DNA from: Desulfosudaceae bacterium
GTDB taxonomy: Bacteria; Desulfobacterota; Desulfobacteria; Desulfobacterales; Desulfosudaceae
NCBI GenBank assembly: GCA_963674745.2
Contig: CAXXDV010000003.1
Location: 1,376,001 to 1,440,000, forward strand
Direction: 5' to 3'
Length of the DNA: 64,000 nucleotides
This document shows positions 15,436-30,827 of the stretch, piece after piece. Positions within the stretch are counted from its first letter, which is position 1. Each line of letters opens with the position of its first letter. A program made the translations under genes and the position numbers. Under the pieces are notes generated by a model. The model was not told the DNA's origin, ran no database searches, and saw only the letters and a list, made by a program, of their open reading frames with translations.

Positions 15436-17517
15436 TTATTTCTCCTGCTTTTTATTTTTCATTTTTTCAATTTCTTCGGCAATGGCCGCCGGCACCTGCT
15501 GGTAAGCCATAAACTCCATGGCGAATTGTGCCTGTCCCTGGGTAGATGACCGCAGAACGTTTGAGAAACCGAACATTTCAGCCAACGGTACCTGGGCTTC
15601 AATCGCACAGGAAACGCCTTCGTCCTGGGTACCGACAATGATACCGCGCCGCTGGTTTAACAGCTTCATTACGCCGCCCTGAAATTCCGGCGGGGTTTCA
15701 ACCGTTACTTTCATTATGGGTTCATGAATAATCGGACCGGCCTTTCTGTAAGCTTCGAGAAAGGCGCCTCGGGCCGCGGCCTCAAAAGCCATTTCCGATG
15801 AATCAACCGAATGAAAGGCGCCGTCATTGATTTCAATTTTGACATCCACCACCGGGAATTCCAGCCAGGGCCCCTTATCCATGCACTTTGAAAAGCTTTT
15901 TTCACAGGATGGAATATATTGGGTCGGTATGGCACCCCCGGTTATTTTGTTTTCAAACACGAAACCCTCTCCGGGAGCGGGTTCCATGTATCCCGCGACG
16001 CGCCCGAACTGACCTGCCCCACCCGTCTGTTTTTTATGGGTATAATTAAATTCAACCCGGCGGGTGATTGTTTCCCGGTAAGCCACCTGGGGGCTACCGA
16101 TGGAGATGGCGGCGTCATATTCACGGCGCATACGTTCCAGATAGACATCCAAATGCAGTTCGCCCATACCCTGGATAATTGTTTCGTTGGTCTCTTTGTC
16201 CACAAACGTTTGAAAGGTCGGATCTTCCCTGGTAAACCGGCCGATGGCTTTGGACATGGCGATTTCCGACTTGTTGTCCTTGGGCTTGATGGCCAGAGAG
16301 ACGACCGGATCGGGCACGAAAATAGATGTCATCGTCAGCCTTAAGCCGTCACTGGTAAACGTGTCGCCGGAAGCACAATCGATCCCGAACAAAGCGCCGA
16401 TACCGCCGGCCGATATTCGTTCGATATCTTCCATCTGGTCGGCATGCATGCGTACCAGCCGGCCGATGCGGACTTTCTTACCCGTTCTGACATTGATGAC
16501 GTTATCCCCTTTTGATAAGGTTCCCTGGTATACGCGCACATAGGTCAACTGACCGTAACGCCCGTCTTCCAGTTTAAACGCCAGGGCGACGACGGGCTGG
16601 CCCGGGTCGTGGGACAGGGTCACCTGCGACTGATCATTATCCAGGTCAATAGCCGTGTTCTGTGCGTCTTCAGGGGCCGGCATATAAGTGATAATCGCGT
16701 CCAGCAGGGGTTGTACACCCTTATTTTTGTAAGCCGATCCCACGAAAACCGGCGTCAATTCCCGGGCAAAAGCGCCCTTCCGGATGGCTTCAGCCAGCAT
16801 CGCTTCGGTAATTTCCGTTTCTTCCAGAACGGCATCGGTCAGTTCTTCCGAAAAGGCTGATGCGGCATCGATCAGCACTTCACGCTGTTCTGCCGCCCGA
16901 TCTTTAAGGTCATCCGGAATTTCAGTGGTTTTGATTGTCTCACCGTTGTCACCCTCGAAATAAACGGCTTTCATGGTTACCAGGTCCACAACGCCATTAA
17001 AATCCGCTTCCAGGCCAATGGGAATCTGTATCAGCACGGCATTGTGGCCGAGTTTATCTTTGAGTTGTCGGGTTACGCGAAAGGGATCGGCCCCGCTGCG
17101 GTCACATTTATTGACAAAGGCCAGGCAGGGAACCTTATACCGCTTCATCTGCCGGTCCACGGTAATCGACTGGGATTGGACCCCGCCCACGGCGCACAAG
17201 ACCAGGACGGCACTGTCCAGGACCCGAAGTGACCGCTCAACTTCAATAGTAAAATCCACATGGCCCGGTGTGTCGATAATATTGACGCTATACCCCTTCC
17301 ACTCACAAAAGGTCGCCGCCGAGGCGATGGTAATCCCCCGCTCTTTTTCAAGCTCCATGAAATCCATGGTCGCACCCACGCCGTCTTTTCCCTTAACGTC
17401 ATGGATAGAATGAATCCGTTGGGTATAGAACAGTATCCGTTCGGTCAGTGTGGTTTTTCCCGAATCAATATGGGCGCTGATGCCGATGTTTCTCAGTTTC
17501 TGTTTTGCAGGTTTCAT
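15436..17517 (-). CDS. fusA: Elongation factor G (mtEFG1-like/spdEFG1 subtype)
   Basis: [42 protein letters not shown]; '[17 protein letters not shown]' insert typical of the mtEFG1-like clade. Confidence 0.96.
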
Positions 17518-17694
17518 TTTTCAGTAATACCCTATTTTAATAATCTTTCATCAATCTCTTGGATTAAAACAATAAAACGGTAAAAGCCGGTTTATGAGTC
17601 GCGCTCCGGGTGTCATACGGATAACTTAAGCAGCATGATTACAGAAAACAGTTCAGGGATACTTAGTCTTTTCCATTCCCGAAAAAATCTGTTG

Positions 17695-17723
17695 TATATA
17701 TCAGGTTGTTTTTCATGGTGCAA
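17695..17723 (-). promoter_or_regulatory. Candidate sigma70 promoter for fusA
   Basis: Minus strand TTGCAC-17 bp-TATATA. Confidence 0.4.
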
Positions 17724-17874
17724 GAGAAAAGATGTGAACACAAGATAATTATCGTTCGCCTCAAGAGCGATCACAGATCCCCTTAAATCGCCGACTGTTT
17801 CCTCCGCCTCTCTGGTTACACCTGATAAATGTCATCCCAAAGCCACTTGACAACATGTGGTACCCTCAAAAATA

Positions 17875-17906
17875 TTGACACACAAGATGCTCTTGCTATA
17901 TATAAT
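17875..17906 (+). promoter_or_regulatory. Candidate sigma70 promoter of the radical-SAM operon
   Basis: TTGACA (17875-80) followed by TATATA at 16 or 18 bp and TATAAT at 20 bp; dyad CAAGA-tgc-TCTTG inside the spacer. Confidence 0.55.
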
Positions 17907-17932
17907 ACCCATAAAAGCAGATTCTTACATAA

Positions 17933-19300
17933 ATGCAGCCTCTTCCTCCACATATGCATGTCTACATCATACCCTTCCAGGATAAGTTTGTCGTCTACAG
18001 ACCTTTAAAAAGATTAGCCTTTATTGCTAATTCGGCCATGGTTAATCTTATTGCGAAGATACAGGAGAAGTCACATTTTAAGGGCCTGCCGACGCACAGT
18101 GAAGCCATGGCCTTTCTCGATGCCGTCGGTTTTTTTGAACCCGACCCCCGGCCTACCCAACCGCCGCCAGTTCAAGAACCGTATTTACCGACAGTCGCGG
18201 TCGTGTTTTTAACCACTGACTGTAATTGTAAATGTGTTTATTGTTATGCTTCAGCAGGCGGTGTGCCGGCCACGGAAACGCTTCCCGTCAGGCTGGGATA
18301 TCGCACCATTGATGTTGTCTGTGAAAATGCCCTGCTGACCGGAAAAAACAAATTCACGTTGAGCTTTCATGGCGGCGGCGAACCGACGATGGCGTCGAAA
18401 AAAATGAAACAGCTGATAAATTACGCCAGAAAAAAAGAAGTACCCTGTCATGCCAATCTTACAACCAACGGTTGCTGGTCTGCGGCTGACAGGGAGTGGA
18501 TTCTGAACAATTTTGACGATGTCAGCCTCTCTTTTGACGGTTTGCGTGAAATTCAGGACCGCCAGCGTCCGCTTGCAAGCGGTAGAGGAACATATGACCT
18601 GGTTATGGCGAGCATTACGGCCATGGACCAGCGGCAGTTGTCTTATGGTATCCGAATGACGGTAACAGAGGACTCTGTCGATCAATTGCCGGAAAACATG
18701 AAATTCCTTTGCAGCAGCACGGATTGCCGGGTTTTCCAGGTGGAGCCGGCGTCCAATCATGGACGGGCAATGCAGGGCCATAATGCCCTGACCCAATACG
18801 ATCGATTTGCCCGGGCCTTTCTTAAAGCATATGATATTGCCGTGGCTGCGGGCAGGCACATGTATTATTCAGGCGCAAGGCCCTGGGTGATTACCCCACG
18901 TTTTTGTCAGGCCCCGGAAAATGCTTTGATTGTGGGTACGGACGGGTTTCTCACGGCATGTTATGAAGTGTGCAGTAGAGACCACGAACTGGCGGGGCTG
19001 TTTTGCTTTGGTGATATCTCCGAAAACGGGATAATGTCCGTGCACGAAAAGACCCGGCAGGCGCTTTTTGAAAAAATTGAACAGCGAAAAAAACAGTGCC
19101 GGGACTGCTTTTGTTTCTGGCATTGTGCCGGAGACTGCCCGTCCAAGACAATGACGGCGGATGGCAGGGGGCACCTTCGGTTTGACCGACGGTGTGATTT
19201 GAACCGCCATATTACCCGGGAACTGATTATACGCAACATTACAAACGGTAACGGTATCTGGCAGGGGGCATCAGAAGAACAGATGCTTGTCGCCTGTTAG
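17933..19300 (+). CDS. Radical SAM/SPASM peptide-maturase-like enzyme 1
   Basis: CNCKCVYC (CxxxCxxC), FHGGGEP, TTNG, SFDG; SPASM: FC...DGFLTAC...CRDCFCFWHCAGDC...C. Confidence 0.92.
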   Translation: MQPLPPHMHVYIIPFQDKFVVYRPLKRLAFIANSAMVNLIAKIQEKSHFKGLPTHSEAMAFLDAVGFFEPDPRPTQPPPVQEPYLPTVAVVFLTTDCNCKCVYCYASAGGVPATETLPVRLGYRTIDVVCENALLTGKNKFTLSFHGGGEPTMASKKMKQLINYARKKEVPCHANLTTNGCWSAADREWILNNFDDVSLSFDGLREIQDRQRPLASGRGTYDLVMASITAMDQRQLSYGIRMTVTEDSVDQLPENMKFLCSSTDCRVFQVEPASNHGRAMQGHNALTQYDRFARAFLKAYDIAVAAGRHMYYSGARPWVITPRFCQAPENALIVGTDGFLTACYEVCSRDHELAGLFCFGDISENGIMSVHEKTRQALFEKIEQRKKQCRDCFCFWHCAGDCPSKTMTADGRGHLRFDRRCDLNRHITRELIIRNITNGNGIWQGASEEQMLVAC

Positions 19301-19327
19301 GGCAGTTAACACCAAAAGGAATCGACG

Positions 19328-19780
19328 ATGGAAAAGAGAAGGAATCCTGGCGCTGCGACAACATCCCGCCGGAACTTTTTCCGTCGTTTTTTTACTGAAA
19401 CGATAAGCCTTATTGAGGAAGCCAGGGGAACCCCCCAGCTCAACCTGAATGATATCGCAGCGCTCCCGGATGAGATTTTCGGTAGTATCATTCCGGTTTT
19501 CAGTGAACATACCCGGTATCGGATTGAAGGTGATCGGCTACTCATCGTCGATGAAAAGAGCGCTATTTTCAGAAAAGCCTATCAATTTACGCCTCGAGAG
19601 CTGTATGTTTTGAATCAATTTGACGGACATAATACATTAAATTCAATTGTTTATGTAATTATAAACCAGTTTGACCAAGATGCCGAAGCAGCGTTTCAGC
19701 AGGTAAAAAATCTGTTCTGCACCATGGCCGGATACGCGGTATGCCATCCGCTGCATGAAACACCGGAGCAGCAAAAATGA
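19328..19780 (+). CDS. PqqD/RRE-like protein with an N-terminal SRRNFF extension
   Basis: C-terminal 'RLLIVDEK...YQFTPRELYVLNQFDGHNTLNSIVYVIINQFDQDAEAAFQQVKNLFCTM' fits the PqqD/RRE winged-helix pattern; SD AAGGA; ATGA overlap with the next gene. Confidence 0.7.
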   Translation: MEKRRNPGAATTSRRNFFRRFFTETISLIEEARGTPQLNLNDIAALPDEIFGSIIPVFSEHTRYRIEGDRLLIVDEKSAIFRKAYQFTPRELYVLNQFDGHNTLNSIVYVIINQFDQDAEAAFQQVKNLFCTMAGYAVCHPLHETPEQQK

Positions 19781-21162
19781 ACCGGGCAGATATTGCCGAT
19801 ATTTACGCCATTTCCTTACCAGAAGAGAAGTTTCTGCTATATTCCCCGTTAAGGGGTTTTTCCGCGCTCGTAAACCGGAAAGCCCTTGATGAATCCGCCC
19901 GGTTTGTAACGGGAAAACCATGCCGAAACAGGGGGGCGTCACCGCTTGACGCTATTTTCAATGCGCTTTCAACGCCTGCTTTACCCCCTCCATTTGAACC
20001 GGATAAGCTGCTGGCTCCTTTTTTTCTGGGTATTATTCCCACGCGGGCCTGTAACATGTCCTGCCGTTATTGCGATTTCGGGGACCAATCGCCGGGTTCG
20101 CAGTCCATGGATTTACGGACTGCTGTAGCTGCTGTGGACTGGATGGCGGACCATGTTTATCGGACAGGCCGGGATAAACTGGAAATCCACTTTTTCGGCG
20201 GAGAGCCGTTTGTCGCCCCAGATGTCGTGGACGCCGCCGTTTACCGGGCGCGGGCTGTTGCCGGGGAAAAAGGGATACCCCTTCATCTGGAAGTGTCCAC
20301 CAACGGTCTATTTGATGAGAACAGGGCCGTTTTTGTGGGGGATTACTTTAATTCAGCTGTTATTTCCCTGGATGGATTCCGGGAAACACATGACCGTCAC
20401 CGCCCCCTAGACGGGAGCAGAGGTAGTTTTGATGGTGTCGTAGAGTCAATTCGGCGGCTTTCGATGACGCCGGCAGAGGTTTGTCTGCGGTGTTGTATAT
20501 CGCATATAAACGTGGACAGGATGGAAGCGATTGCCCGGTGGTTCTGTGAAGAATTAAAACCATCTGTCGTAAACTTTGAAATCGTAAGTTCAAATTCAAA
20601 ATCAGATGCGGCGGGATTGTTTCCGCCCGACCCGTATCGTTTTGCCGGTAATTGCGTTCGGGCCTGTCGTCTTGTCCGACAATTCGGGATTCAAGCGGTT
20701 TACGCGTCGGCATCTATTGATACCGTGCGTCGAAGTTTTTGTCCCATGGGAAAGGATACCTTGATCGTTTCTCCCGATGGACGGATCAGCAGTTGTTATC
20801 TGCCGGACAGGGACTGGAAGAAAAAGGGACTGGATCTTGATGTGGGACGTCTGAGAACGGATGGTTCAATGGATATTGACATGGCTGCAATCCAGCGTCT
20901 GCGCCGGATAACCGCCGATAAGCCCGGCTGTGAAAAATGCTTTTGCAAATGGACTTGCGCCGGAGGCTGTCATGTCAGGCAATACGATCAGGCAGCTGTT
21001 TCTACAAAAAATGATTTTTGTGTTCAGACGCGCCTTATTACCGCCTGTTCTCTGCTGGACAACCTTGGATTCCGCGATCTGGCCGATTCGCTTCTGGCGG
21101 ATATGGACGCGATGGAAACTCTGGCGTTGAATCCATCGGATTATTTGGTACAATTCACATGA
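19777..21162 (+). CDS. Radical SAM/SPASM peptide-maturase-like enzyme 2
   Basis: CNMSCRYC, FFGGEPF, STNG, ISLDG; SPASM FC...PDGRISSC...CEKCFCKWTCAGGC...FC. Confidence 0.92.
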   Translation: MNRADIADIYAISLPEEKFLLYSPLRGFSALVNRKALDESARFVTGKPCRNRGASPLDAIFNALSTPALPPPFEPDKLLAPFFLGIIPTRACNMSCRYCDFGDQSPGSQSMDLRTAVAAVDWMADHVYRTGRDKLEIHFFGGEPFVAPDVVDAAVYRARAVAGEKGIPLHLEVSTNGLFDENRAVFVGDYFNSAVISLDGFRETHDRHRPLDGSRGSFDGVVESIRRLSMTPAEVCLRCCISHINVDRMEAIARWFCEELKPSVVNFEIVSSNSKSDAAGLFPPDPYRFAGNCVRACRLVRQFGIQAVYASASIDTVRRSFCPMGKDTLIVSPDGRISSCYLPDRDWKKKGLDLDVGRLRTDGSMDIDMAAIQRLRRITADKPGCEKCFCKWTCAGGCHVRQYDQAAVSTKNDFCVQTRLITACSLLDNLGFRDLADSLLADMDAMETLALNPSDYLVQFT

Positions 21163-21196
21163 TGTATGGAAATTAAACCATAACGAAAGAGGCCAT

Positions 21197-22822
21197 ATGG
21201 ATGACTCTAGAAAAGATGATCGCTTGAAGCAAGTGCCCGAGAATCCGGATGAAAAACCTGAGGTGTACGCGGTCTCAATGAAAAAAAAGAGGGTTTCATT
21301 AAGCCGTCGTGCTTTTTTGGGCAGTATCGGTACCGGCGCGCTGCTGACCGCCTGTGCTGAACTAAATCCTCAAAAAAACGGATGTGTCGACAAAACAGCC
21401 GGCCGGCCGGGGGGTGTTTCACAATTACCGTCGGAACCGGTAAAAGAAGTGTATGAGTGGTGCGAAAATTTTAATACCCATTCAAATTCCGTCAATGCCC
21501 TGGCTGTCAGCCCGAATGGCCGGATGCTGGTGTCGGGAAGCGCCGACACAACGATCAAATTATGGTCTCTCCCCGGGGGAAAGCTCCTGAAAATCTTAAA
21601 GGGGCATTCAAATGTTGTAAATACGGTAGCCGTCAGTCCGGACGGCAAGCTGCTGGCTTCCGGAAGCGGCGGTAAGACTGTCAGGCTGTGGTCTCTTAAA
21701 AATGGCCGGGGGCTGCTTTCTTTGAAAGGGCATTCAGCGTTTGTCAAGTCTGTTGCCTTCAGCCCGGATGGCCGGCTGCTGGCTTCCGGAAGCGGAGACA
21801 AAACCATTAAGTTGTGGTCTCTGCCGGAGGGGAAACTGCTGAAAACCCTGACGGGACATTCGAGTTATGTGTATGCGGTTGCCTTCAGCCCGGACGGTAA
21901 ATTTCTAATATCCGGAAGCGCTGACAAAACCATCCGGTTGTGGTCTTTGCCGGACGCAATGCTGTCACAAACCCTGACAGGGCATTCCGACTATGTCAAC
22001 TCACTGGTTGTCGGTTCGGACAGCCGGCTCCTGATATCGGGAAGCTGTGACAGAACGATTAAACTGTGGTCTTTGCCGGACGGGGGGCTGTTGCAAACCC
22101 TGGCAGGTCATTCCGGCTGGATCAATACTTTAGCGATCAGCCTGTGCGGACATCTGCTGGCGTCGGGAAGTGCTGATAAAACGGTAAGAATATGGTCCCT
22201 GCCGGAGGGTAAACCGCTTCTGGTGATGATGGGCCAGGATTTGCCGATAAAATCCGTGGTAATCAACCCGGAAGGGAATTTGTTAATATCGGCCGGTAGT
22301 GACAAAACCATTACCGTATGGACGCTTCCGGATGGATCCCCCAGTTGGTGCTTTTCCGATCCTGCCTTAACCGCGCCGCAGGAGATGAAAACCTTTCGTC
22401 AGATGGGATTTTGCACCCGGATCCTGCCCTGTGGCGCACAGATACCGCCGGGGGCTGTTTGCACTTGTAATTGTGTGGCAGCGGCCTCTATCCACAAGGG
22501 GCCTGAAACGATCTGTATTTGTGATACCATCGCCGTCCCGGCCTTCAAAACGCTGCCGGGAAATACGGTGTGTGTCTGCAACACAATTTTAGTCGGCACG
22601 GGTTGTATCCCCAAGAATCATGAACGGCACATGTCAGGGAAGTCCTGTACCTGCAATACTATTTGTACCTGTGATACGGTGTCGAGGGCCGGTCTTCCTT
22701 GTTCCCGTTATGCTGTAGGCGGCCACACAAAACAGACGACCGGAACGACTTGTACCTGCGATACCATCTGCACCTGCGATACGGTTTCAACAGGAGGCGG
22801 GCATTACTGGTATCCCACTTAA
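21197..22822 (+). CDS. Tat-lipoprotein WD40 beta-propeller with a Cys-rich repeat tail (candidate substrate of the rSAM operon)
   Basis: SRRAFL + hydrophobic stretch + LTAC lipobox (Cys53); seven 42-aa GH...W repeats; tail with 7 CxC[DN]x[IV] units ending GGGHYWYPT; SD GAGG. Confidence 0.88.
   Translation: MDDSRKDDRLKQVPENPDEKPEVYAVSMKKKRVSLSRRAFLGSIGTGALLTACAELNPQKNGCVDKTAGRPGGVSQLPSEPVKEVYEWCENFNTHSNSVNALAVSPNGRMLVSGSADTTIKLWSLPGGKLLKILKGHSNVVNTVAVSPDGKLLASGSGGKTVRLWSLKNGRGLLSLKGHSAFVKSVAFSPDGRLLASGSGDKTIKLWSLPEGKLLKTLTGHSSYVYAVAFSPDGKFLISGSADKTIRLWSLPDAMLSQTLTGHSDYVNSLVVGSDSRLLISGSCDRTIKLWSLPDGGLLQTLAGHSGWINTLAISLCGHLLASGSADKTVRIWSLPEGKPLLVMMGQDLPIKSVVINPEGNLLISAGSDKTITVWTLPDGSPSWCFSDPALTAPQEMKTFRQMGFCTRILPCGAQIPPGAVCTCNCVAAASIHKGPETICICDTIAVPAFKTLPGNTVCVCNTILVGTGCIPKNHERHMSGKSCTCNTICTCDTVSRAGLPCSRYAVGGHTKQTTGTTCTCDTICTCDTVSTGGGHYWYPT
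21479..22360 (+). repeat. Seven tandem 126-bp WD40 coding repeats
   Basis: Units such as HSxxVxxVAFSPDGxLLASGSxDKTIKLWSLPxGxLLxTLxG at 42-aa period. Confidence 0.93.
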
Positions 22823-22834
22823 GCCGGACGGCAG

Positions 22835-25672
22835 ATGAATATTTTAACTCCTGCGAATAAAAACGACATAACCGACGATTTCACGGCAGCGGACACTTTT
22901 TCTGTCGGCAATTTTATGCTTAAGGGGAAGGTCCATCCGAAACTGCCTCTGTTTGAACTGCGTTCGGGCGGTCAAAGCGTATTGTATGCGCCCGGAAAAG
23001 TTGCCGTTGTAGATTATCCGAATGCCGAAGCGATCTGCCGGGCATGGTCCGGAGACGGTGTCCTGTCTCCGGGCAGCATTTCCGGTCAGACGGCCCGATG
23101 GCTTGAAACGCATGCGGAAAATGCCCTGAAAAAATGGAAGGCTGTTACCGGCATGCCTTTCCAGCCCGAATGCCTGACCATTTACCCGGGTATTCAGTGC
23201 AACCTGAAATGTGGTTATTGTTACGCGCGGAACCGTGACGTTGATGAAACAGCGGGAAGCAGGTCAGGCCGTCCGGTTATGGCTGATTCGGTTGTGGCTT
23301 CCGCTGCCGCGATTGTAGCGAAAAACTGCGCCGACAAAGGACTTCCGTTTCATCTGGTTCTGCACGGCGGTGGAGAGCCCTCATACTACTTTGATCAGGT
23401 GCGCCGTTATACGGCGATAACCCGCCAGGCTGCCCGGCAGCTCGGGCTGGACTGGTTCGGGTATATCGCCACCAATGGGGTAATGCCTGAAAAAAATGCC
23501 CGGTGGCTGGCTGAAAATTTTACGCGGATCGGACTGTCGTGCGACGGCCCTCCAGATATTCAGGACAGGCAGCGGCCGCTTAAAACTGGCGGCAGAACCT
23601 CGCCACAGGTAAAACAGACCGCGCGTATTTTAACTGAACATGGCGCGGATATGGTTGTCCGCGCCACCCTGACACCCTGGTCTTTTTCTCGTCAGACTGA
23701 AATTGTCACCTATTTTTATGAGCATTTAAATCCATCCGCCATACGTTTTGAACCGGCTTTTCGACTTCGGGATAATGGGCATCCGGGATTCACCGCAGAC
23801 GATGCGTCAATTTTTGTCGAGCATTTTCTGGCTGCCAGGAAGACAGCAGAATCCATGGGATGCCATCTTTCCTTATCCGGTATCCGGCCCGAAGAGATCC
23901 ACGGCCCTTTTTGCGATGTCCTGCGGAATGTCCTGCGTCTGGGACCGGACGGTTCGGCTACGGCCTGTTTTCTGATATCAGATGAAACGGTACCTGTCAG
24001 TTCGCCTTTTTTGATTGGCCGGGCGGACCCGGACACGGGTGATTTTATTTTAGACACCAAAAAGATAGAGGCATTCCGGCGTTCCGTCGCCGTCATACCT
24101 GCCGAATGTGAACAATGCATCAATATCTGTCATTGCGCCCGGGGATGTCCGGACCGGTGTCCGGTTTTAACCGGGTCGCCCGTTGATCCGGAGAATAAAA
24201 ATAATAATAATTTTCTGTGCCGGTTGTATCAAAAACTGGCGCCGGCCCTCATTATGGACGCAGCGGACAGGTTGATAAACAGAGAACAAAAAAAGGCGGT
24301 GACGATACTACCCGATATCGGCATCTCCGATGAAGCCGGCCTTAACCTGAATGATCTGCCGGCTGCCGTAAACAGGGAAGAGATCAGAAAACAGTATGAC
24401 GCGGTGGGCGGTACCTATGATATTACAGCCGGCCGCTTGCCGGAGCCTGCCTGGCGGAAAAAGGGGTTTACCTTCAATGGCCCTGATGCCTGGCATTATC
24501 TGCGTCGGGTTTTACCGGATACGGATCACGCCCGACCGGTGTCTATTTATTTCCATGTCCCGTTTTGTGAACACCGGTGTGCCTTTTGTGACTGCTATGC
24601 CTTTCCCTTCGGGAAAAAAAGGTCCGTAAAAGAAGAGGCCTTTTGCCGGGCGCTTGTAGCTGAAATGCGTTTTTGGTCGGATATTTACCCGATCAGCCGA
24701 CGCCGGGTTACGACCGTCCATTTCGGCGGAGGGACCCCGGGGTGTTTGAATGCTCCTGTGTTTGATCGAATTCTGACGGAATGCCGCGATCTTTTTAAAG
24801 TCCATGAGCAGACGGAATGGGCGCTGGAAACAACCGTTTCTCACATCAGGCAGGAAGATTTGAACCGGTTGGGAAAATTGGGCTTTTCCCGGCTGCATGT
24901 TGGGGTTCAGACCTTAAATGAGGATTTAAGGCAATCCATTGGGAGAAGGACTTCAGCCAAGGATGCTGTCTTCAGGCTGAAAAAGGCCATGGGGGCAGGT
25001 TTTGTTGTTTCCGTAGATATTTTATATGGCCTCCCCGGACAGCGCTTATCGGATGTGCTGAATACCCTGTCGATCCTGATTGACATGGAGATTCACGGTC
25101 TGTCGCTTTACCGTTTCAATGTATCAAAACGGAATCGATGGTATATTAAGCGTTGCCGGGAGTTTAACCCGGATCCGCGTCGTGATTACTTGATGTTTCA
25201 GGCCGCGGAGCAAATGCTGACCAAAGCCGGTTATCGGAAAAACCATTTTGCGCATTTTGCAAAACAAGCGGATCGCAACCTGTATTTCACCTGTCCGCTG
25301 AGGGGGGAAGACCTGCTGGCCATGGGGCCGACGGCAGACGGTTTTTTCGGTAATTATCGATACCGTAACGCGGAATATGCAAGGTATATGAACCAGTTGC
25401 AAAACAAATCAGGCATGCCGGTGCTGCAAGGCTGTCTTGAGGAATCAGACCTTGAGGTCAGGGCGCGTCCGGCGATCCTCGACATTATGGGCAGCCATAT
25501 CCGGAGAAGCGTTCATGAACATCTGGGTATCGACAGTCTGATCAAGAAATGGGAAGACTGTCTGCTGATCGAAAATTTATCCGGCGGAAATGATTTTGCG
25601 TTAACACCGAACGGCTCCTGGTTTGTTAATCAAATGATTGCTGATGTTTTACATGATCTTGAAAGCAGGTGA
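22835..25672 (+). CDS. Double radical-SAM fusion: N-terminal rSAM/SPASM + C-terminal HemN/class C methyltransferase-like rSAM
   Basis: CNLKCGYC, LHGGGEP, SPASM (FC...C; CEQCINICHCARGC); second domain SIYFHVPFCEHRCAFC, TVHFGGGTP, RLHVGVQT, DILYGLPGQ. Confidence 0.9.
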   Translation: MNILTPANKNDITDDFTAADTFSVGNFMLKGKVHPKLPLFELRSGGQSVLYAPGKVAVVDYPNAEAICRAWSGDGVLSPGSISGQTARWLETHAENALKKWKAVTGMPFQPECLTIYPGIQCNLKCGYCYARNRDVDETAGSRSGRPVMADSVVASAAAIVAKNCADKGLPFHLVLHGGGEPSYYFDQVRRYTAITRQAARQLGLDWFGYIATNGVMPEKNARWLAENFTRIGLSCDGPPDIQDRQRPLKTGGRTSPQVKQTARILTEHGADMVVRATLTPWSFSRQTEIVTYFYEHLNPSAIRFEPAFRLRDNGHPGFTADDASIFVEHFLAARKTAESMGCHLSLSGIRPEEIHGPFCDVLRNVLRLGPDGSATACFLISDETVPVSSPFLIGRADPDTGDFILDTKKIEAFRRSVAVIPAECEQCINICHCARGCPDRCPVLTGSPVDPENKNNNNFLCRLYQKLAPALIMDAADRLINREQKKAVTILPDIGISDEAGLNLNDLPAAVNREEIRKQYDAVGGTYDITAGRLPEPAWRKKGFTFNGPDAWHYLRRVLPDTDHARPVSIYFHVPFCEHRCAFCDCYAFPFGKKRSVKEEAFCRALVAEMRFWSDIYPISRRRVTTVHFGGGTPGCLNAPVFDRILTECRDLFKVHEQTEWALETTVSHIRQEDLNRLGKLGFSRLHVGVQTLNEDLRQSIGRRTSAKDAVFRLKKAMGAGFVVSVDILYGLPGQRLSDVLNTLSILIDMEIHGLSLYRFNVSKRNRWYIKRCREFNPDPRRDYLMFQAAEQMLTKAGYRKNHFAHFAKQADRNLYFTCPLRGEDLLAMGPTADGFFGNYRYRNAEYARYMNQLQNKSGMPVLQGCLEESDLEVRARPAILDIMGSHIRRSVHEHLGIDSLIKKWEDCLLIENLSGGNDFALTPNGSWFVNQMIADVLHDLESR

Positions 25673-25946
25673 AGATGGTTCACTTTGATCCTGATGTCGT
25701 CTGGTCTGTTGACTGCCGCGGTTTGTCGCTGGTTCACCGTAAAACAGGTGACCGCGCTTGCCTGGTTTATCCCCAAGCCGCTTTATGGGATCTGTTGAGC
25801 AGAGAGGTGGAAATGACGAGGATCATCCGGATCATGACGGCTCTGACGGCGTTGAGGACCCGGCTGTCCGGCTATGGTGCCGCCGGACCGTCCAGGGCTG
25901 GATTGACGCGGGCTGGATGCTCGAAGACGGGGAAACCGCATCATGA
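25669..25946 (+). pseudogene. PqqD/RRE-like protein interrupted by a 1-nt frameshift near 25848 (real lesion or assembly error)
   Basis: Joining ORF 25669 (to ...IMTALT) with the -1 frame (GVEDPAVRLWCRRTVQGWIDAGWMLEDGETAS*) gives a 92-aa RRE-sized protein with a GTGA overlap upstream and an ATGA overlap downstream. Confidence 0.72.
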
Positions 25947-27940
25947 CGAATCTTTCCCTTACCTCTGAATGTAACCAGAATTGTTCATACTGCTTTGCCG
26001 GGAATATAACGGAAGTCAGCCGTTTTCCCCGCCGGGAGTATGATGGGTTCCTCGCGTTTTTGAGGCGGTCAGGGATCAAGCAGGTCCGGTTGCTGGGCGG
26101 TGAACCCACGCTTCATCCGGACTTTATTTTTTTTGTAGAAGAGGCTTTCCGTCAGGGCTTTCATGTGCTGGTATTTTCAAACGGCATGATGCCTGAAAGC
26201 GCCGTAAAATGTCTTGAAATCCTGCCCCCGGACAAGCTACTGGTTCTGGTAAATACCACCCCTTCCCGGCGTTGGAACATGAACCTACGTGGTCGCCGGA
26301 TCGAGATATTGAAACGTTTGAATCAGAGGGTAATGATCGGTTTAACCATTCACACAACGAACCCTGATATTGATTCCATCTGTTCGTATATTGAAATATT
26401 GAATTTACGCCCCGCCATCCGCCTGGGTCTGGCCCATCCCTGCCCGGACAGCACCAATCAATGGTTGCCTCCCAAGCATTATTGTCTGGTCGGACAAATC
26501 ATAGCCGATTTTATCATTCGGCACCCGGATCTGTCGATCGAGTTTGATTGCGGCTTCGTGCCCTGCATGTTCCCGGACTGGTTTTTTTCACAGTCTGTTT
26601 TCAAACCGGAGGACATCGGGCGCCGCTGCGGGCCGATACCGGACATCTTACCCGATGGCTCAGTAGTGCACTGTTTTCCGTTACGTGCCATATCGAAACT
26701 GACACTGGATCAACTGGCCTGTGCCCGGGCGGCAGGAAAAGAATTGTCGCGAATGGTTGCACCGTATCAGCATACGGGTATTTTCCCGGAATGCGGCTGC
26801 TGTGAATATCGGACGGCGGATCAGTGCTCCGGCGGTTGTATTGCGGCAGCCGGCCGGCGCTTGAGAAGTTCGTCTCAATGCTTTTCTCTGTCAATTCCGC
26901 TCAGCACATCCCTTGCGTCGGATTTTACCGGCAATGAGCCGTCCCCCGGTAACGGGACGCTGGAAGATGTGAACGATGCCAGGGTGGACAAAGATTTCAT
27001 CATTCCGTATATCGATCAGCCACCGCGTTTCTGGGAGGAAATTTATAGCGCCTTTGGCCGGTTTATCAAAAAGGTGTATTGTCCCCTGCCCGGCAGTAAA
27101 ATCGGTTCCGGGCGTCCGCCTCAACCCGATGACCATTTACATCAATTTTTATGTTCCGGTTATTTTGAGACGGATATCCTTATCAACTCGCCTTTTGTTA
27201 AAGAACCGCTGGACGATTTTACAAGCCGTGTCATCAGGGAATTGAGGCTGTTTTCGGAGAAATACCCTTTATCGGGCGTGACGATTGCCAATCGTAAGGT
27301 CGGCAGACGGATCCGGGAGGTATTTCCTGACCTGACCCTGACGGCTTCGGTGTTGATGGATGTTTACGGGCCTGATCAGATAAAACGGATGGGGGATACT
27401 TTTGACTGCCTGGTTCCGTCCAGCAGGATTATGCGTAATATCAATGCCCTGATGCGGATCAGGCAGGCTTTTGCCGGGAAGATACGGTTGATCGCCAATG
27501 AAGCGTGCCTTCCGGGCTGCCCCTACCGTGATCAGCATTTTTACGAGATGAATTCCGACCGTTCGTACCCTGAATCGCTCTGTACCGACCTTCTCGAGGA
27601 AAAACCATGGCTGCGCTTAACCGGTGCCTGGGTTCTTCCGCAGCACCTGTCTTTTTTCGATACCATCTATGATGAACTCAAACTGGCGGGCCGCGTTACC
27701 TTAAAAGATCCGGCAAAGTATATGAAGGTGCTGAATGCTTATATTACCGGGACGCCGCTGACCCCGGATGAAATCGGCGGCGGGCCGGCGTCTGTCCTAG
27801 ACCCTGTTTATATTGATTCTGATTTTTATTTTTCCACGTTAAATTGTGATAAACAATGCCATCAATGCGATATCTGCAGCACATATTATGAAATGCAGAC
27901 CAATCCGGTAGAAAATGAAACAGAAAAAGTGCCTGTATGA
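25943..27940 (+). CDS. Radical SAM/SPASM fused to a peptidase-U32-like Fe-S domain
   Basis: CNQNCSYC, LLGGEPTLHP, SPASM-like C...C...CGCC...CSGGC; from ~aa 352 a U32-like barrel: GVTIAN, LTASV, IANEACLPGCPYRDQH, C, LKLAGR, terminal CDKQCHQCDIC. Confidence 0.8.
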   Translation: MTNLSLTSECNQNCSYCFAGNITEVSRFPRREYDGFLAFLRRSGIKQVRLLGGEPTLHPDFIFFVEEAFRQGFHVLVFSNGMMPESAVKCLEILPPDKLLVLVNTTPSRRWNMNLRGRRIEILKRLNQRVMIGLTIHTTNPDIDSICSYIEILNLRPAIRLGLAHPCPDSTNQWLPPKHYCLVGQIIADFIIRHPDLSIEFDCGFVPCMFPDWFFSQSVFKPEDIGRRCGPIPDILPDGSVVHCFPLRAISKLTLDQLACARAAGKELSRMVAPYQHTGIFPECGCCEYRTADQCSGGCIAAAGRRLRSSSQCFSLSIPLSTSLASDFTGNEPSPGNGTLEDVNDARVDKDFIIPYIDQPPRFWEEIYSAFGRFIKKVYCPLPGSKIGSGRPPQPDDHLHQFLCSGYFETDILINSPFVKEPLDDFTSRVIRELRLFSEKYPLSGVTIANRKVGRRIREVFPDLTLTASVLMDVYGPDQIKRMGDTFDCLVPSSRIMRNINALMRIRQAFAGKIRLIANEACLPGCPYRDQHFYEMNSDRSYPESLCTDLLEEKPWLRLTGAWVLPQHLSFFDTIYDELKLAGRVTLKDPAKYMKVLNAYITGTPLTPDEIGGGPASVLDPVYIDSDFYFSTLNCDKQCHQCDICSTYYEMQTNPVENETEKVPV

Positions 27941-28049
27941 AAACAGAGGGGGTGATAATGACAGATAGTGCCCTTTTATTTTTCTGGACAAGAATGATCG
28001 TCCGGTGAATGGATCGGAAATGCCTTGCAAAGGATGCTTTTACAGTTTG

Positions 28050-28496
28050 TTATCCAAATATATCGATTTTACTTTCACCGCTCATATATCTGAAATAGTC
28101 AGACAAAATACGCCCGTGATCAAAAGCCAGGGTTTCCGGCAAGGTGTCTTTGGTATAAACAACGGCCCTGGCGGCATCGTCTGCAGCAATGGGCGTACCT
28201 TCGGCTTCGGCGATAAAAACGACGCTGGCCGTATGGTGACGGGGGTCACGGGCTGGATCGGAATAAACGTGAAACTGCTCTTTCAGGCTCACATTCAGCC
28301 CGGTTTCTTCAGCCGCCTCGCGAACAGCAGCCCTTTCCACCGATTCACCGTAATCGACAAACCCGCCCGGCAAAGCCCAGCCATAGGGCGGATTTTTGCG
28401 TTCAATCAGAATGATACCGCCATTGATTTGAATAATGATATCAACAGTCAAAAAGGGGTTGCGGGGATTGTTCATATACGGATTCTTCCCTTTCAA
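28050..28496 (-). CDS. NUDIX hydrolase (ADP-ribose pyrophosphatase-like)
   Basis: Nudix box [33 protein letters not shown]. Confidence 0.93.
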
Positions 28497-28540
28497 AGCC
28501 AGGCCGGTGTTTTTGTTATTTAAGAGGCTGGGTTGTTCAA

Positions 28541-28860
28541 GGTGTTTATGTGGTTAAGTGTTTATGTGATTAAGGTATCAGGGTGTTACGTGTTATTTAT
28601 TTTTGGTTAAGGTGTTGTCGCTCGCGAATGTTGTAGGGGCGGCCCCCTGTGGCCGCCCGGCAAAAGGGCAACCACAGGGGGTTGCCCCTACAGGAGTTCG
28701 GGGCCCTCGCCTATCATCACTCAACCTCCGAACCTACAACCCTCGCAATGACGCAATCAACTAAAACTCTAACACTTTAAAACCTAAAACTTAAGTCTTT
28801 AATGCCTCAACAAACCAATCAACCACGATATCCACTTAATCACTTAATCACATAAACACC
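28541..28860. repeat. Inverted CAC(A/T)TAAN octamer arrays flanking the REP doublet
   Basis: GGTGTTTATGTGGTTAAGTGTTTATGTGATTAAG (28541-74) is largely the reverse complement of CACTTAATCACTTAATCACATAAACACC (28833-60). Confidence 0.7.
28633..28691. repeat. GTAG-family REP doublet (REPIN-like)
   Basis: GTAGGGGCGGCCCCCTGTGGCCGCCC (28633-58) and inverted GGGCAACCACAGGGGGTTGCCCCTAC (28666-91), 22/26 identical, each with an internal hairpin. Confidence 0.85.
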
Positions 28861-28955
28861 TTCTAAGTAACTTAACAAAAAAACGCCATATGTTGTGTTA
28901 TATACACGCCGAAGCACAACCCACGAAACAACCCAGTGTAAGAAAGTTATTTGTA

Positions 28956-28987
28956 GGTTTGGTTCCGGGCCGTGCCCGGTTGGAACG
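28956..28987. repeat. Dispersed hairpin repeat, copy 1
   Basis: GGTTTGGTTCCGGGCcgtGCCCGGTTGGAACG; second copy at 58916-58947. Confidence 0.75.
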
Positions 28988-29109
28988 CTAATCACCCGCT
29001 CACCAAGTCATTATTTTAAACCCGTTGATTTCAATTGCTTTTTGTAAATACAGCGTTATATAGAGAGTATCCGAAATAAACGCCTTTCTAATTTGAGCAA
29101 AGAGGTTTT

Positions 29110-29529
29110 TTGATGGGAGACTGGATGTCCGAGTTGTTTCGACTGAAATCAGTCTTTAAACCGTTGGTTATTGTTATGCTGGGGGGCGGTCTGGGCGCGG
29201 CCAGCCGATATCTGGTCGGTTTATTGAGCGCCAGGATATGGGGGACTCATTTTCCCTGGGGAACGCTTATCGTTAATCTGGCGGGTTGTTTTCTGATCGG
29301 TTTTTTTTTCGCCCTTTCGGACCGGGCCCGACTGCTGACACCGGAAATGCGCCTTCTGTTGATCACCGGATTTCTGGGCGCACTGACCACATTTTCTACG
29401 TTTTCTCTTGAAACCACCAACGCCGCTCGAGCCGGCATGACGCTTCAGCCGGTTGTTAATATTCTGGTCAACAACCTGGGCGGTATCGGCTTGACCTTTC
29501 TGGGGTTATGGCTGGGAAGCCTTAAATAG
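29110..29529 (+). CDS. crcB: Fluoride channel CrcB/Fluc
   Basis: GGGLGAASRY, FPWGTLIVNLAGCF, TGFLGALTTFSTF; true start may be ATG 29125. Confidence 0.95.
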   Translation: MMGDWMSELFRLKSVFKPLVIVMLGGGLGAASRYLVGLLSARIWGTHFPWGTLIVNLAGCFLIGFFFALSDRARLLTPEMRLLLITGFLGALTTFSTFSLETTNAARAGMTLQPVVNILVNNLGGIGLTFLGLWLGSLK

Positions 29530-29537
29530 GGGGGGGA

Positions 29538-30827
29538 ATGCTTAATTACAAAGCGATCGAGATTTTTACCAGCGAAGAAGCACGTTACCGGAAAAAGCCG
29601 TTAGTCGATACGGTCCTGCAATATATCAAAGACTTGAAGATTGCCGCCCGCTGTATCGTCACCCGGGGTATTGCCGGTTGTTACGAAAGCGGTGAATTGA
29701 CGACTACCCGCCTGGAAATCCTCTCTTTCAACCTGCCGGTCCGAATCTATATCGTTCTTCCAGACGCTGAAGCCGAACGGGTGCTCGACGGACTGAACGA
29801 GATGATCACCGACGGCATCGTGGCGCTGCATGATCTGAACGTACTCTGTCACCGGACGCAAAATGCCTTTTTTCCCAGGCAGCTCCTGGTTCGGGACGTC
29901 ATGACCCGCGATCCGGAATGTGTGACAGCCGGCACCGCTTTGAGCGATGTGGTTCGCCTGCTTTTATCCTCGATTTTTTCAGGGTTGCCCGTAGTCGATG
30001 AGTTCAACCGTCCCGTGGGTGTCATCACCCAGGGGGATTTGATTAAAAAAGGCGGCCTTCCCCTGCGTTTGGGGCTGCTGGCAGAGTCCGATCAGAACCG
30101 CCTGGCGTCTGTTTTAAACCGGCTTTCTTCCCGAACGGCCAGCGAAGTCATGACGACACCGGCGGTGATGATTGCCGCCGACCAGCCATTAACCAAAGCA
30201 GTGGAACTGATGTTGAACAAAGGCGTTAAACGCCTGCCGGTAGTCGATAAGAACGGCGGAATCTCAGGCATGCTGTCGCGGCTGGATATCTTCCGGACGG
30301 TCATGCGGGAGGCGCCGGACTGGGACACATTCAAGGCGCAAAAAATAGAAGTAAAACAGCTAAAACGCGTAGGGGACATTTTACACCGGGACGTGCACGC
30401 CGTCTCACCGGAGACGACGATTGATGAAGTTATCCGGTTTATCGATGACAACGCCATTCAACGGGTGGCCGTTGTTGACACCGGGGGAAAACTGCTGGGG
30501 TTGATTTCGGATCGTGATTTGCTGCGATACTTCAAGCCGGAGCAGGAAGGTGTCTGGCGTATATTGGCAAAGATGAAAAACCCCTTCAAGCAGGAGACTT
30601 CCGATTCCGGAGATATTCAAAAGCGCCTGTCCGAGATAACCGCAGGAGCGGTCATGACAACAACGGTGATTACGGTTGATGAGGACATGAAAATCGAAAC
30701 GGCCATCGGTTTGATGCTTGACAAGGGGCTAAAACGGCTTCCCGTAATTAACCGGGATGGCCGGTTCCAGGGCATGATCAGTCGGGACGCGCTGTTGCGG
30801 ACGGGGTATGGAAGCCAGGCGTCTTGA
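29538..30827 (+). CDS. DUF190 (PII-like) domain + two CBS pairs
   Basis: 'IFTSEEARY...VTRGIAG...ILSFNLPVRI' DUF190; four CBS repeats (GLPVVD, KRLPVVD, RVAVVD, KRLPVIN). Confidence 0.85.
   Translation: MLNYKAIEIFTSEEARYRKKPLVDTVLQYIKDLKIAARCIVTRGIAGCYESGELTTTRLEILSFNLPVRIYIVLPDAEAERVLDGLNEMITDGIVALHDLNVLCHRTQNAFFPRQLLVRDVMTRDPECVTAGTALSDVVRLLLSSIFSGLPVVDEFNRPVGVITQGDLIKKGGLPLRLGLLAESDQNRLASVLNRLSSRTASEVMTTPAVMIAADQPLTKAVELMLNKGVKRLPVVDKNGGISGMLSRLDIFRTVMREAPDWDTFKAQKIEVKQLKRVGDILHRDVHAVSPETTIDEVIRFIDDNAIQRVAVVDTGGKLLGLISDRDLLRYFKPEQEGVWRILAKMKNPFKQETSDSGDIQKRLSEITAGAVMTTTVITVDEDMKIETAIGLMLDKGLKRLPVINRDGRFQGMISRDALLRTGYGSQAS

Follow-up and report, generated by a model that had tools for sequence, protein, structure and literature searches.

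The 541-aa protein encoded at positions 21197-22822 (+ strand) of a 64,000-nucleotide stretch of the genome of a Desulfosudaceae bacterium (contig CAXXDV010000003.1, positions 1,376,001 to 1,440,000; hereafter the window) would be, with a probability that we put at about 0.6, a protein-sized substrate similar to the precursors of RiPPs (ribosomally synthesized peptides with post-translational modifications), with a leader merged with a twin-arginine translocation (Tat) signal and a Cys-rich tail cross-linked before export. This reading is based on the anatomy of the precursor, the linkage of its gene to genes for radical S-adenosylmethionine (rSAM) enzymes, the co-variation of these genes with the type of the tail, and a model-supported contact of the leader with one of the enzymes. 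In the precursor, residues 1-36 are followed by the Tat signal, a propeller, a linker, an entry motif, six more CxC units and the terminal HYWYPT, at the following positions:

21197-21304, + strand, leader, precursor residues 1-36, with E-x-P-[EQ]-[IV]-[YF] (P21-Y24) at a fixed spacing ahead of the RR pair
21305-21355, + strand, twin-arginine signal (RRAFLGSIGTGALL) and lipobox LTAC (Cys53), assigned by sequence motif
21461-22342, + strand, seven-repeat WD40 beta-propeller, residues ~89-382 (Pfam WD40 E 1.5e-82, seven stretches)
22421-22477, + strand, entry motif ILPCGAQIPPGAVCTCNCV, residues 409-427, consensus PCG..P..GA.C.CNCV
22514-22786, + strand, CxC hexamer units CICDTI (22514-22531), CVCNTI (22571-22588), CTCNTICTCDTV (22646-22681) and CTCDTICTCDTV (22751-22786)
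22802-22819, + strand, C-terminal HYWYPT, family consensus G-G-H-Y-W-[YHR]-P-N

The tail (22412-22822, + strand) comprises 136 residues and the stop codon and ends in GGGHYWYPT. A preliminary description of this DNA had reported 19 Cys and seven CxC[DN]x[IV] units in a 136-residue tail behind a WD40 propeller, and the translation, the cysteine count and the seven stretches matched by Pfam bore this out. The units are CTCNCV, CICDTI, CVCNTI, CTCNTI, CTCDTV, CTCDTI and CTCDTV, with starts at residues 422, 440, 459, 484, 490, 519 and 525. Four of the six units located downstream of the entry motif are paired as two dodecamers, CTCNTICTCDTV (residues 484-495) and CTCDTICTCDTV (residues 519-530), which are near-identical, as had been noticed. 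Chance or low complexity was ruled out as the source of the repeats: among 20,000 shuffles of the tail, the mean number of units was 0.023 and the maximum 2, and none attained the observed 7. A recent tandem duplication or an assembly artefact was also ruled out, because the DNA segments of the dodecamers (22628-22683 and 22733-22788) share no more than 75% identity over 56 nt; the repeat is thus old and maintained at the protein level. The whole genome (5.55 Mb, 3 contigs) contains one region matching the precursor, which excludes a second copy. In the entry motif C412, P417, C422, C424 and C426 are invariant in alignments of 16 and of 62 tails, and Y537, W538 and P540 at the C-terminus are invariant or almost so in the family alignments.

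With the tail as query, a word-indexed search retrieved 17 proteins of similar length and 20 shorter ones, and a profile search against 1.84 billion representatives yielded 207 clusters (50% identity) at E up to 0.001, 53 of them at E up to 1e-10, with nearly all matches extending to the last residue of the protein. Common to the family are the leader with the RR signal, the entry motif with its invariant C, P, C, C and C, and a variable number of CxC pairs. The middle domain varies (WD40, SH3-like, unknown or none), and therefore the propeller is cargo and the two ends are the module. The description of the protein as a precursor-like core fused to a propeller is apt, as precursors without the propeller exist, namely P0027 (154 aa) and P0031 (186 aa). 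Another three short precursors, P0029, P0033 and P0035 (135-192 aa), which end in YWYPN, have the leader, the RR signal and CxC units and lack the PCG...CNCV entry motif.

Examination of 149 non-identical related tails revealed that 1094 of 1121 Cys occur in CxC pairs and that the commonest spacing of the units is 6 residues. In the 552 units of these tails, position 2 is mostly T (45%) or S (29%), position 4 is D (42%), N (26%), V (21%) or Q (6%), together 95%, position 5 is T (45%), G (19%) or S (16%), and position 6 is V (48%), I (23%), H (10%) or Y (6%), together 87%. The number of units per tail ranges from 0 to 9, in keeping with iterative sites. The earlier suggestion that residues beside the Cys, Asp and Asn among them, are the acceptors of cross-links is weakened: D and N are common at position 4, but the frequent V and the occasional Q demonstrate that they are not obligatory. 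Judging by the unit profile, which agrees with a C-x-x-acceptor rule in the preferences at both position 4 and position 6, an acceptor, if any, would fit the relation of Cys(i) to residue (i+3) better than that of Cys to the residue next to it.

Since CxC pairs, which hold 97.6% of the tail Cys, are a hallmark of metallothioneins, we considered that the tail could be a metal- or iron-sulfur-binding domain, either metallothionein-like or a cluster ladder, which keeps its Cys as thiolates, is loaded in the cytoplasm and is exported folded by Tat, the rSAM proteins building or inserting the cofactor or acting on YWYP only. The four invariant Cys within 15 residues of the entry motif, the 4 + 4 Cys typical of tails without the YW.P end and the Tat signal of the precursor agree with this explanation, as does the lack of a confident fold for the isolated tail, for which AlphaFold2 (62 alignment rows) produced hairpins only at the two dodecamers at pLDDT 44.8 and pTM 0.26, which is no usable model and not evidence of disorder. 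The missing fold is also in line with the cross-linking reading. The authors of a study of the Cys-rich protein CrpA, discussed below, also suspect a metal role for that protein (PMC13692751). However, searches of Pfam (E up to 10) and NCBIfam (E up to 0.01) with the tail gave zero family matches, metal-binding ones included, the best profile match in PDB had E 0.48, and unit counts of 0 to 9, odd ones included, fit poorly to a fixed cluster stoichiometry. In addition, the conserved leader, with its predicted docking on an RRE-type domain, and the near-obligate SPASM neighbour in minimal systems, both described below, would be left unexplained. We regard this explanation as improbable; it is compatible with partial cross-linking.

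The cross-linking reading is also based on the genes around the precursor, which is the fourth of seven same-strand genes separated by short gaps or overlapping. The other six encode four rSAM proteins with five rSAM domains (three SPASM-type, one HemN-like, and one fused to a U32-like barrel) and two PqqD-like proteins:

17933-19300, + strand, rSAM1, radical SAM/SPASM protein of 455 aa by Pfam domains, with a putative N-terminal domain similar to the RiPP recognition element (RRE)
19328-19780, + strand, PqqD-like protein 1, 150 aa, its stop overlapping the rSAM2 start
19777-21162, + strand, rSAM2, radical SAM/SPASM protein of 461 aa (PF04055 50.8 bits, cutoff 29.5; PF13186 24.3 bits, cutoff 21.5)
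22835-25672, + strand, rSAM3, fusion protein of 945 aa with a SPASM-type rSAM domain at residues ~112-451 and a HemN-like class C rSAM domain at ~555-939
25669-25968, + strand, PqqD-like protein 2, 99 aa, PqqD-like at the family level only
25943-27940, + strand, rSAM4, 665 aa, with an N-terminal rSAM domain (PF04055 46 bits) and a C-terminal U32-like barrel (26963-27937)

The first 36 residues of the precursor are hydrophilic and contain PEVYAV at positions 21-26. They are followed by SRRAFLGSIGTGALL and then by the lipobox-like LTAC, and residues 36-53 (SRRAFLGSIGTGALLTAC) have both the S/T-R-R-x-F-L-K-like motif and the subsequent hydrophobic stretch of Tat substrates. In 39 sequences with the YW.P-type end, P21, R37, R38 and F40 are invariant, and the distance between the leader motif and the RR pair varies by an indel of just 1 residue. 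The n-regions of Tat signals are usually variable, and hence this conservation calls for a reason. A lipobox-like motif was found in 34 of the 64 open reading frames (ORFs) with the motif in which the RR pair was located; in 29 of 93 such ORFs there is no RR in the first 140 residues of the longest frame, which points to truncated or over-extended frames and is no sign that the RR is absent. The predicted complex of rSAM1 with precursor residues 1-45 scored 0.80, compared to 0.00 for the best of 3 controls; the mark set for this score, which applies to our complex only roughly, was attained by 116 of 157 solved complexes and by 2 of 215 mismatched pairs. The runs had at least 91% of contacts in common, the pLDDT of the partner was at least 71, and the predicted contacts connect rSAM1 residues 10-61 with leader residues 4-16 and 19-28. 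In this prediction, the leader is docked on the RRE-like domain at the N-terminus of rSAM1.

A degenerate-pattern scan for the entry motif in 185,579 species genomes, one per species, identified 203 stretches, 165 of them relatives, and 75 loci were kept, whose ORFs within 10 kb flanks, taken mechanically as longest frames, were searched with the seven proteins of the operon. Homologues of the window rSAM genes are present in 73 of the 75 loci, and an orthologue of rSAM1 in 67. The preliminary description had named a tail common on WD40 proteins without rSAM neighbours as an observation that would count against it, and the loci present the opposite picture; the tail as a substrate core for the adjoining rSAM/SPASM enzymes is thus supported by gene linkage. 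The loci belong to Thermodesulfobacteriota, Bacteroidota, Chloroflexota, Acidobacteriota, Pseudomonadota, Nitrospirota, Planctomycetota, Verrucomicrobiota, Chlorobiota, Actinomycetota, Myxococcota and Gemmatimonadota. The only families found in more than 9 of the 75 loci are the tail proteins (71), SPASM rSAMs (68), rSAM4 (34) and PqqD-like proteins (28).

The gene neighbourhood also bears on the possibility that the tail is a secreted RiPP of the classical kind, with the propeller as a mere carrier, and that the modified peptide is cleaved off and released as an antibiotic or a signal. The short precursors of 135-190 aa and the 2-3 tandem precursor paralogues that often occur in the loci, like in bacteriocin loci, are in agreement with it. 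However, clustering of the neighbours over the 75 loci detected no recurrent protease and no recurrent exporter (ABC included), the Tat signal within the precursor itself is the sole export feature, and the tail is fused to varied folded domains, with further C-terminal domains in some members, which makes such a product very unlikely.

Under the cross-linking reading, the division of labour between the enzymes is suggested by two forms of the system. The tails end in [YF]W[YHR]P in 48 loci, 45 of which contain rSAM2, rSAM3, rSAM4 or a PqqD-like gene, the three others being L022, which ends inside rSAM1, L044 and L063; among the 27 loci with tails without YW.P, 26 have rSAM1 only, and the sole exception, L073, has a distant HemN-like match ~6 kb off (kinship still inflates these raw counts of tail type versus enzymes). 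Tails without YW.P typically finish in C.CN[KR][IV]CTC[VI]P, at times with further domains added, and the one-enzyme form has another, longer conserved stretch in place of the E-x-P-[EQ]-[IV]-[YF] leader. The entry motif occurs in both tail types. Thus the C-terminal HYWYP end, and not the repeats, tracks the extra enzymes, rSAM2 among them, and from this co-variation we infer a division in which rSAM1 is responsible for the entry motif and the CxC units and the accessory set for the Y-W-x-P end. In a quick maximum-likelihood tree (IQ-TREE) of 62 rSAM1 sequences, the tail-type label changes 6 times, at least 4 of the changes being forced by supported branches, and the set of neighbours follows the label in each case checked (L029, L047 and L066 in one direction, L013, L061 and L070 in the other).

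The same tree departs from taxonomy: the Accumulibacter locus L012 pairs with the Desulfovibrionaceae locus L014 (branches 0.26 and 0.17), and the Competibacteraceae locus L002 is placed among Bacteroidales. This topology suggests repeated horizontal transfer, much of it among wastewater and sediment genomes. Several one-enzyme members carry C-terminal extensions. In L064 (8534-10576), L024, L060 and L067 the Cys segment precedes 'SDR.VKESFE...IRHIGPMAQDF'; the L064 extension matches Peptidase_S74 (PF13884, 3.1e-8), an intramolecular chaperone of trimeric phage fibres, and the Cys segment of these proteins may lie within a trimeric stalk. In L020, L034, L059 and L069 another extension, 'CQAH.LLD...', of ~120-200 aa is present, and the whole L020 protein has only WD40-type families among the best 25 matches listed. 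Six loci (L005, L006, L010, L017, L018 and L060) contain 2-3 tandem precursor paralogues, each with a leader and a tail, and the window genome has one precursor. An additional rSAM gene of ~385 aa occurs in 8 loci, e.g. L010:11697-12851 (Fer4_12 2.3e-12, Radical_SAM 9e-12), where it separates rSAM1 from the PqqD-like gene; the window is without such a gene. In 6 loci there is another type of Cys-modifying enzyme, a protein whose FGE-sulfatase domain resembles the formylglycine-generating enzyme (PF03781 2.7e-71 in L018:2-1603).

Both rSAM1 (PF04055 32.2 bits, cutoff 29.5; PF13186 SPASM 25.7, cutoff 21.5) and rSAM2 score above the Pfam gathering thresholds and thus belong to the radical SAM/SPASM superfamily. 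Their top match in NCBIfam is PapB, with the SCIFF maturase in second place for rSAM1 and in third for rSAM2; the PapB model NF047865 (cutoff 340) gives 110.3 bits for rSAM1, 117.3 for rSAM2 and 60.2 for the N-terminal part of rSAM3, all below the cutoff. The nearest solved structures are 5wgg/5why for rSAM1 (E 1.3e-21; order in PDB CteB, SkfB, ChlB, anSME) and 5wgg, again CteB, for rSAM2 (E 9.2e-19; anSME, ChlB and SkfB far weaker). The entry 5WHY is identified as CteB in the CrpA report (PMC13692751). The nearest relatives of rSAM1 and rSAM2 by both NCBIfam and PDB rank are thus thioether formers. The precedents cited in the preliminary description hold as well: in the available text of PMC10114670, QhpD forms C-beta/C-gamma-S bonds, and NxxcB and PapB are listed as ranthipeptide enzymes.

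The enzymes could instead modify the tail by another chemistry, such as conversion of Cys to formylglycine like in anaerobic sulfatase-maturating enzymes (anSME), carbon-carbon cross-links, epimerisation, or C-methylation between the Cys. All three SPASM domains count an anSME among their solved relatives, the operon encodes a HemN-like domain of methyltransferase type, 6 loci have the FGE-sulfatase-domain gene, and SPASM enzymes are described as forming many bond types (PMC10114670). On the other hand, the top-scoring families are thioether formers, the paired Cys and the conserved i+3 positions resemble the proven CrpA sites, and the anSME motif C/S-x-P-x-R does not occur in the units, so that we regard such chemistries as unlikely.

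The most likely course of thioether formation, in which the modification of the tail by the enzymes, the type of bond, the order of events, export and lipidation are all proposed from the data above, would be as follows. Residues 1-36, directly ahead of the twin-arginine signal, would serve as a leader that keeps the precursor, nascent or folded, bound in the cytoplasm to the RRE-like domain at the N-terminus of rSAM1. The ends of a closed WD40 propeller lie together, which would bring the tail near the bound leader. There rSAM1 would act on the entry motif PCG..P..GA.C.CNCV and the CxC hexamer units of the C-terminal tail, and the most likely chemistry is the formation of intramolecular thioethers, ranthionine- or sactionine-type, in which each Cys is joined to the residue at i+3. 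Within CTCDTV, C1 would be linked to D, N, Q or V at position 4 and C3 to V or I at position 6, so that each hexamer would have two small rings that overlap. The accessory set (two PqqD-like proteins, rSAM2, rSAM3 with its HemN-like domain, and the rSAM-U32-like fusion) would act on the Y-W-x-P C-terminus. The finished folded protein would then be exported by Tat, probably to become a lipoprotein; signal peptidase would remove the leader and the signal together, which would explain why no dedicated protease was found.

Several points weigh against this scheme. The type of bond is its weakest step: SPASM similarity is a poor guide to the bond formed, and all specific family models (PapB, SCIFF, QhpD and CrpC) score far under their cutoffs for rSAM1 and rSAM2. 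CxC runs are a typical trait of metal-binding proteins, and Tat export of cofactor-loaded proteins is common. Some 370 residues separate the leader from the core, a greater distance than in known RiPPs. The complex of rSAM1 with the leader was predicted with custom alignments, so that its calibration is approximate, and since a complex of CteB with its leader has already been solved, the passing score may demonstrate likeness rather than binding. Among the 75 loci 8 lack rSAM1 in the DNA covered; six of these have other rSAMs (four on contigs <10.3 kb, and the longer L007, 16.8 kb, and L074, 17.9 kb), and the other two, L044 and L063, which have no rSAM, are second loci of genomes with a full system at L016 and L010. 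Finally, the ORF starts in the loci are mechanical, and the loci were found via the entry motif, so that members without it, such as P0029, P0033 and P0035, were not sampled.

The invariant C-terminus of the first form allows for a more speculative and rather doubtful proposal, in which H-Y-W-x-P-N would give rise to a protein-bound redox cofactor by an oxygen-independent route, making the protein an anaerobic counterpart of the quinoproteins with cysteine tryptophylquinone (CTQ) or tryptophan tryptophylquinone (TTQ), exported ready-made by Tat. A PqqD-like partner and a SPASM enzyme would cross-link the Tyr/Trp pair, the HemN-like domain would alkylate the ring, and the rSAM-U32-like fusion would hydroxylate it; a connection of U32 proteins with O2-independent, prephenate-dependent hydroxylation has been described (PMC10990095). 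The thioether-stapled CxC tail would be a rigid cage, and the propeller or other cargo the substrate site. The RiPP leader would be recycled within the signal peptide, and thus no dedicated protease would be needed.

The HemN-like part of rSAM3 (residues 555-939) scored 185.7 bits with ChuW/HutW (cutoff 400) and 143.5 with HemW (cutoff 205.4), and PapB matched residues 113-451; in PDB, the HemN-like part matched HemN 1olt (1.2e-26) and the methyltransferase NocN 9p2u (1.8e-20), and the N-terminal part of rSAM3 matched 5wgg (1.6e-9). The C-terminal domain thus appears to fall within the broad HemN-like class C group and outside every named family; in several loci the two halves of rSAM3 are separate genes. 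The halves of rSAM4 are likewise distinct genes in 8 related loci. Its C-terminal half has weak matches to PF01136 (U32) in 7 of 9 homologues (best E 0.0015) and none in the window copy at E up to 10, and a sequence profile search in PDB with it gave only noise (U32 entry 5d88 at E 1.4). Its AlphaFold2 model (pLDDT 82.4), however, had the U32 peptidase Mk0906 (5d88) as the top hit in the fold search (E 5.4e-8, TM 0.51/0.64), compared to 4.6e-5 or weaker for generic barrels, and a look-up in the Atlas gave the same U32 lead at 0.94.

PqqD-like protein 1 matches ScmD, a PqqD relative (3.4e-4), and Pfam PqqD itself at E only 0.12; 6 of 23 family members match Pfam PqqD (best E 1.5e-5). For PqqD-like protein 2 the corresponding count is 3 of 7 (best E 0.0082), and the window copy has no match even at E up to 10. 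A profile-profile comparison matched the two families with probability 64% and E 6.5e-5 over 80 columns. An N-terminal R-R-x-F-F (R14, R15) of PqqD-like protein 1 (19328-19780) is invariant in 23 of 23 homologues and is Tat-like but without a subsequent hydrophobic stretch; it may be a mimic of the RR.F segment of the precursor or a common docking element. The ORF of PqqD-like protein 2 (25669-25968) overlaps the rSAM4 start by 26 nt, and its last third does not align to homologues, and so its 3' end may be shifted or decayed.

The operon may be transcribed from a promoter-like site immediately upstream:

17847-17876, + strand, promoter-like site, TTGACA, 18 nt, AATATT, 10 of 12 matches

This site has the joint-best score in 17400-29200, a region with 21 such sites compared to 12.8 expected, and is a consensus match only. 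A foreign island was rejected by composition, as GC is 0.46-0.55 over 14-32 kb of the window without a step. On the 3' side (28005-30827) there are a 172-aa ORF without a Pfam match, a CrcB-like gene and a DUF190-CBS gene, which recur in none of the related loci and are therefore probably unrelated to the system.

Among characterized systems, CrpA/CrpC and QhpC/QhpD are closest in concept and CteB and PapB closest in sequence, and none, to judge from the family model scores, is of the same family. CrpA is a 28.8 kDa Cys-rich protein with ranthionine links proven by mass spectrometry in CAGM, CAVD, CAGD and CPLV motifs (PMC13692751). Like the system described here, CrpA/CrpC of Methanococcus voltae has a protein-sized substrate with C-terminal Cys-rich repeats and an adjoining RRE-rSAM-SPASM enzyme (PMC13692751), and CrpA likewise has a conserved N-terminal leader-like region and Cys three residues before the acceptor (C-x-x-D/Q/V/M). 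In both cases the fold of the Cys region is predicted with low confidence. In contrast, the CrpA repeat has 17 residues, whereas here the units are CxC hexamers, and the Crp system is archaeal with one rSAM enzyme, whereas here there are four proteins with five rSAM domains, and the system is bacterial in every locus fetched. The available text of the CrpA report mentions no Tat signal or propeller, and its three supplementary files do not contain 'WD40', 'twin-arginine' or 'propeller' (PMC13692751). The CrpC family model TIGR04463 (cutoff 525) gave far lower scores of 49.2 bits for rSAM1 and 74.9 bits for rSAM2.

Quinohemoprotein amine dehydrogenase (QHNDH) is periplasmic, and its cross-linked subunit has a Trp-derived quinone and packs on a seven-bladed propeller subunit. 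Its maturation also involves an rSAM/SPASM enzyme and a small Cys-rich polypeptide, QhpD linking Cys of QhpC to Asp/Glu carbons (PMC10114670). Unlike in the QhpC system, here the propeller and the Cys part form one chain with its own Tat signal; the QhpD model TIGR03906 (cutoff 453) gave only 73.2 and 79.4 bits for rSAM1 and rSAM2, and none of the QHNDH haem subunit, QhpE protease, QhpF exporter and QhpG flavoprotein was recurrent in the 75 loci by neighbour clustering (no search by name was made). CteB/CteA and PapB/PapA have an N-terminal RRE domain that binds the leader, as predicted here, and iterative Cys sites. Their substrates, however, are peptides of ~45-50 residues with the leader adjacent to the core, whereas here the leader of a 541-aa precursor is merged with the Tat signal; the SCIFF maturase model TIGR03974 (cutoff 425), whose precursor has six Cys in ~45 aa, gave 100.6 and 99.0 bits, also well below the cutoff.

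A different precedent is anSME, a SPASM rSAM enzyme that converts a Cys within a full-length protein while this is still in the cytoplasm, prior to export. It forms one formylglycine in a C/S-x-P-x-R motif and is not known to use a leader or repeats; as a solved relative (4k36/4k37) it is weak, with E 2.8e-5 to 5.3e-5 for rSAM1 and rSAM2. In PqqD-PqqE and MftB-MftC, a PqqD-family partner and a SPASM rSAM act on a Tyr near the C-terminus of a peptide, starting a redox cofactor. Similarly, the PqqD-like genes and rSAM2 go together here with the invariant Y-W-x-P of the C-terminus, though the PqqE and MftC models score very low here (19.9 and 45.9 bits). No excision enzymes recur in the loci, and thus any product would stay on the protein.

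No description of the system was found in the open full-text literature, searched with motif strings included (subscription journals were outside the scope); the one paper that came up as relevant by title, on conflict systems with FxSxx peptides, is unrelated, and the main text of the rSAM RiPP compendium PMC10288494 contains no WD40, propeller, twin-arginine, Tat, U32 or HemN. Unreported features thus include the leader merged with the Tat signal, the portable tail module, and the accessory set with its rSAM-U32-like fusion. The named cases of enzymatic thioether stapling of a whole protein are QHNDH and now CrpA (PMC13692751). With so few cases proven, the tail family, if our reading is true, would add a widespread bacterial one. 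A RiPP leader fused to a Tat signal would mean that the general export machinery could both proof-read the leader-bearing protein and remove the leader; this fusion and the portable C-terminal module on varied cargo domains would be new design features. The clean split between the one-enzyme form and the form with four rSAM and two PqqD-like proteins, which also covers the unstudied rSAM-U32 fusion, offers an experimental handle for assigning a region of the substrate to each enzyme.

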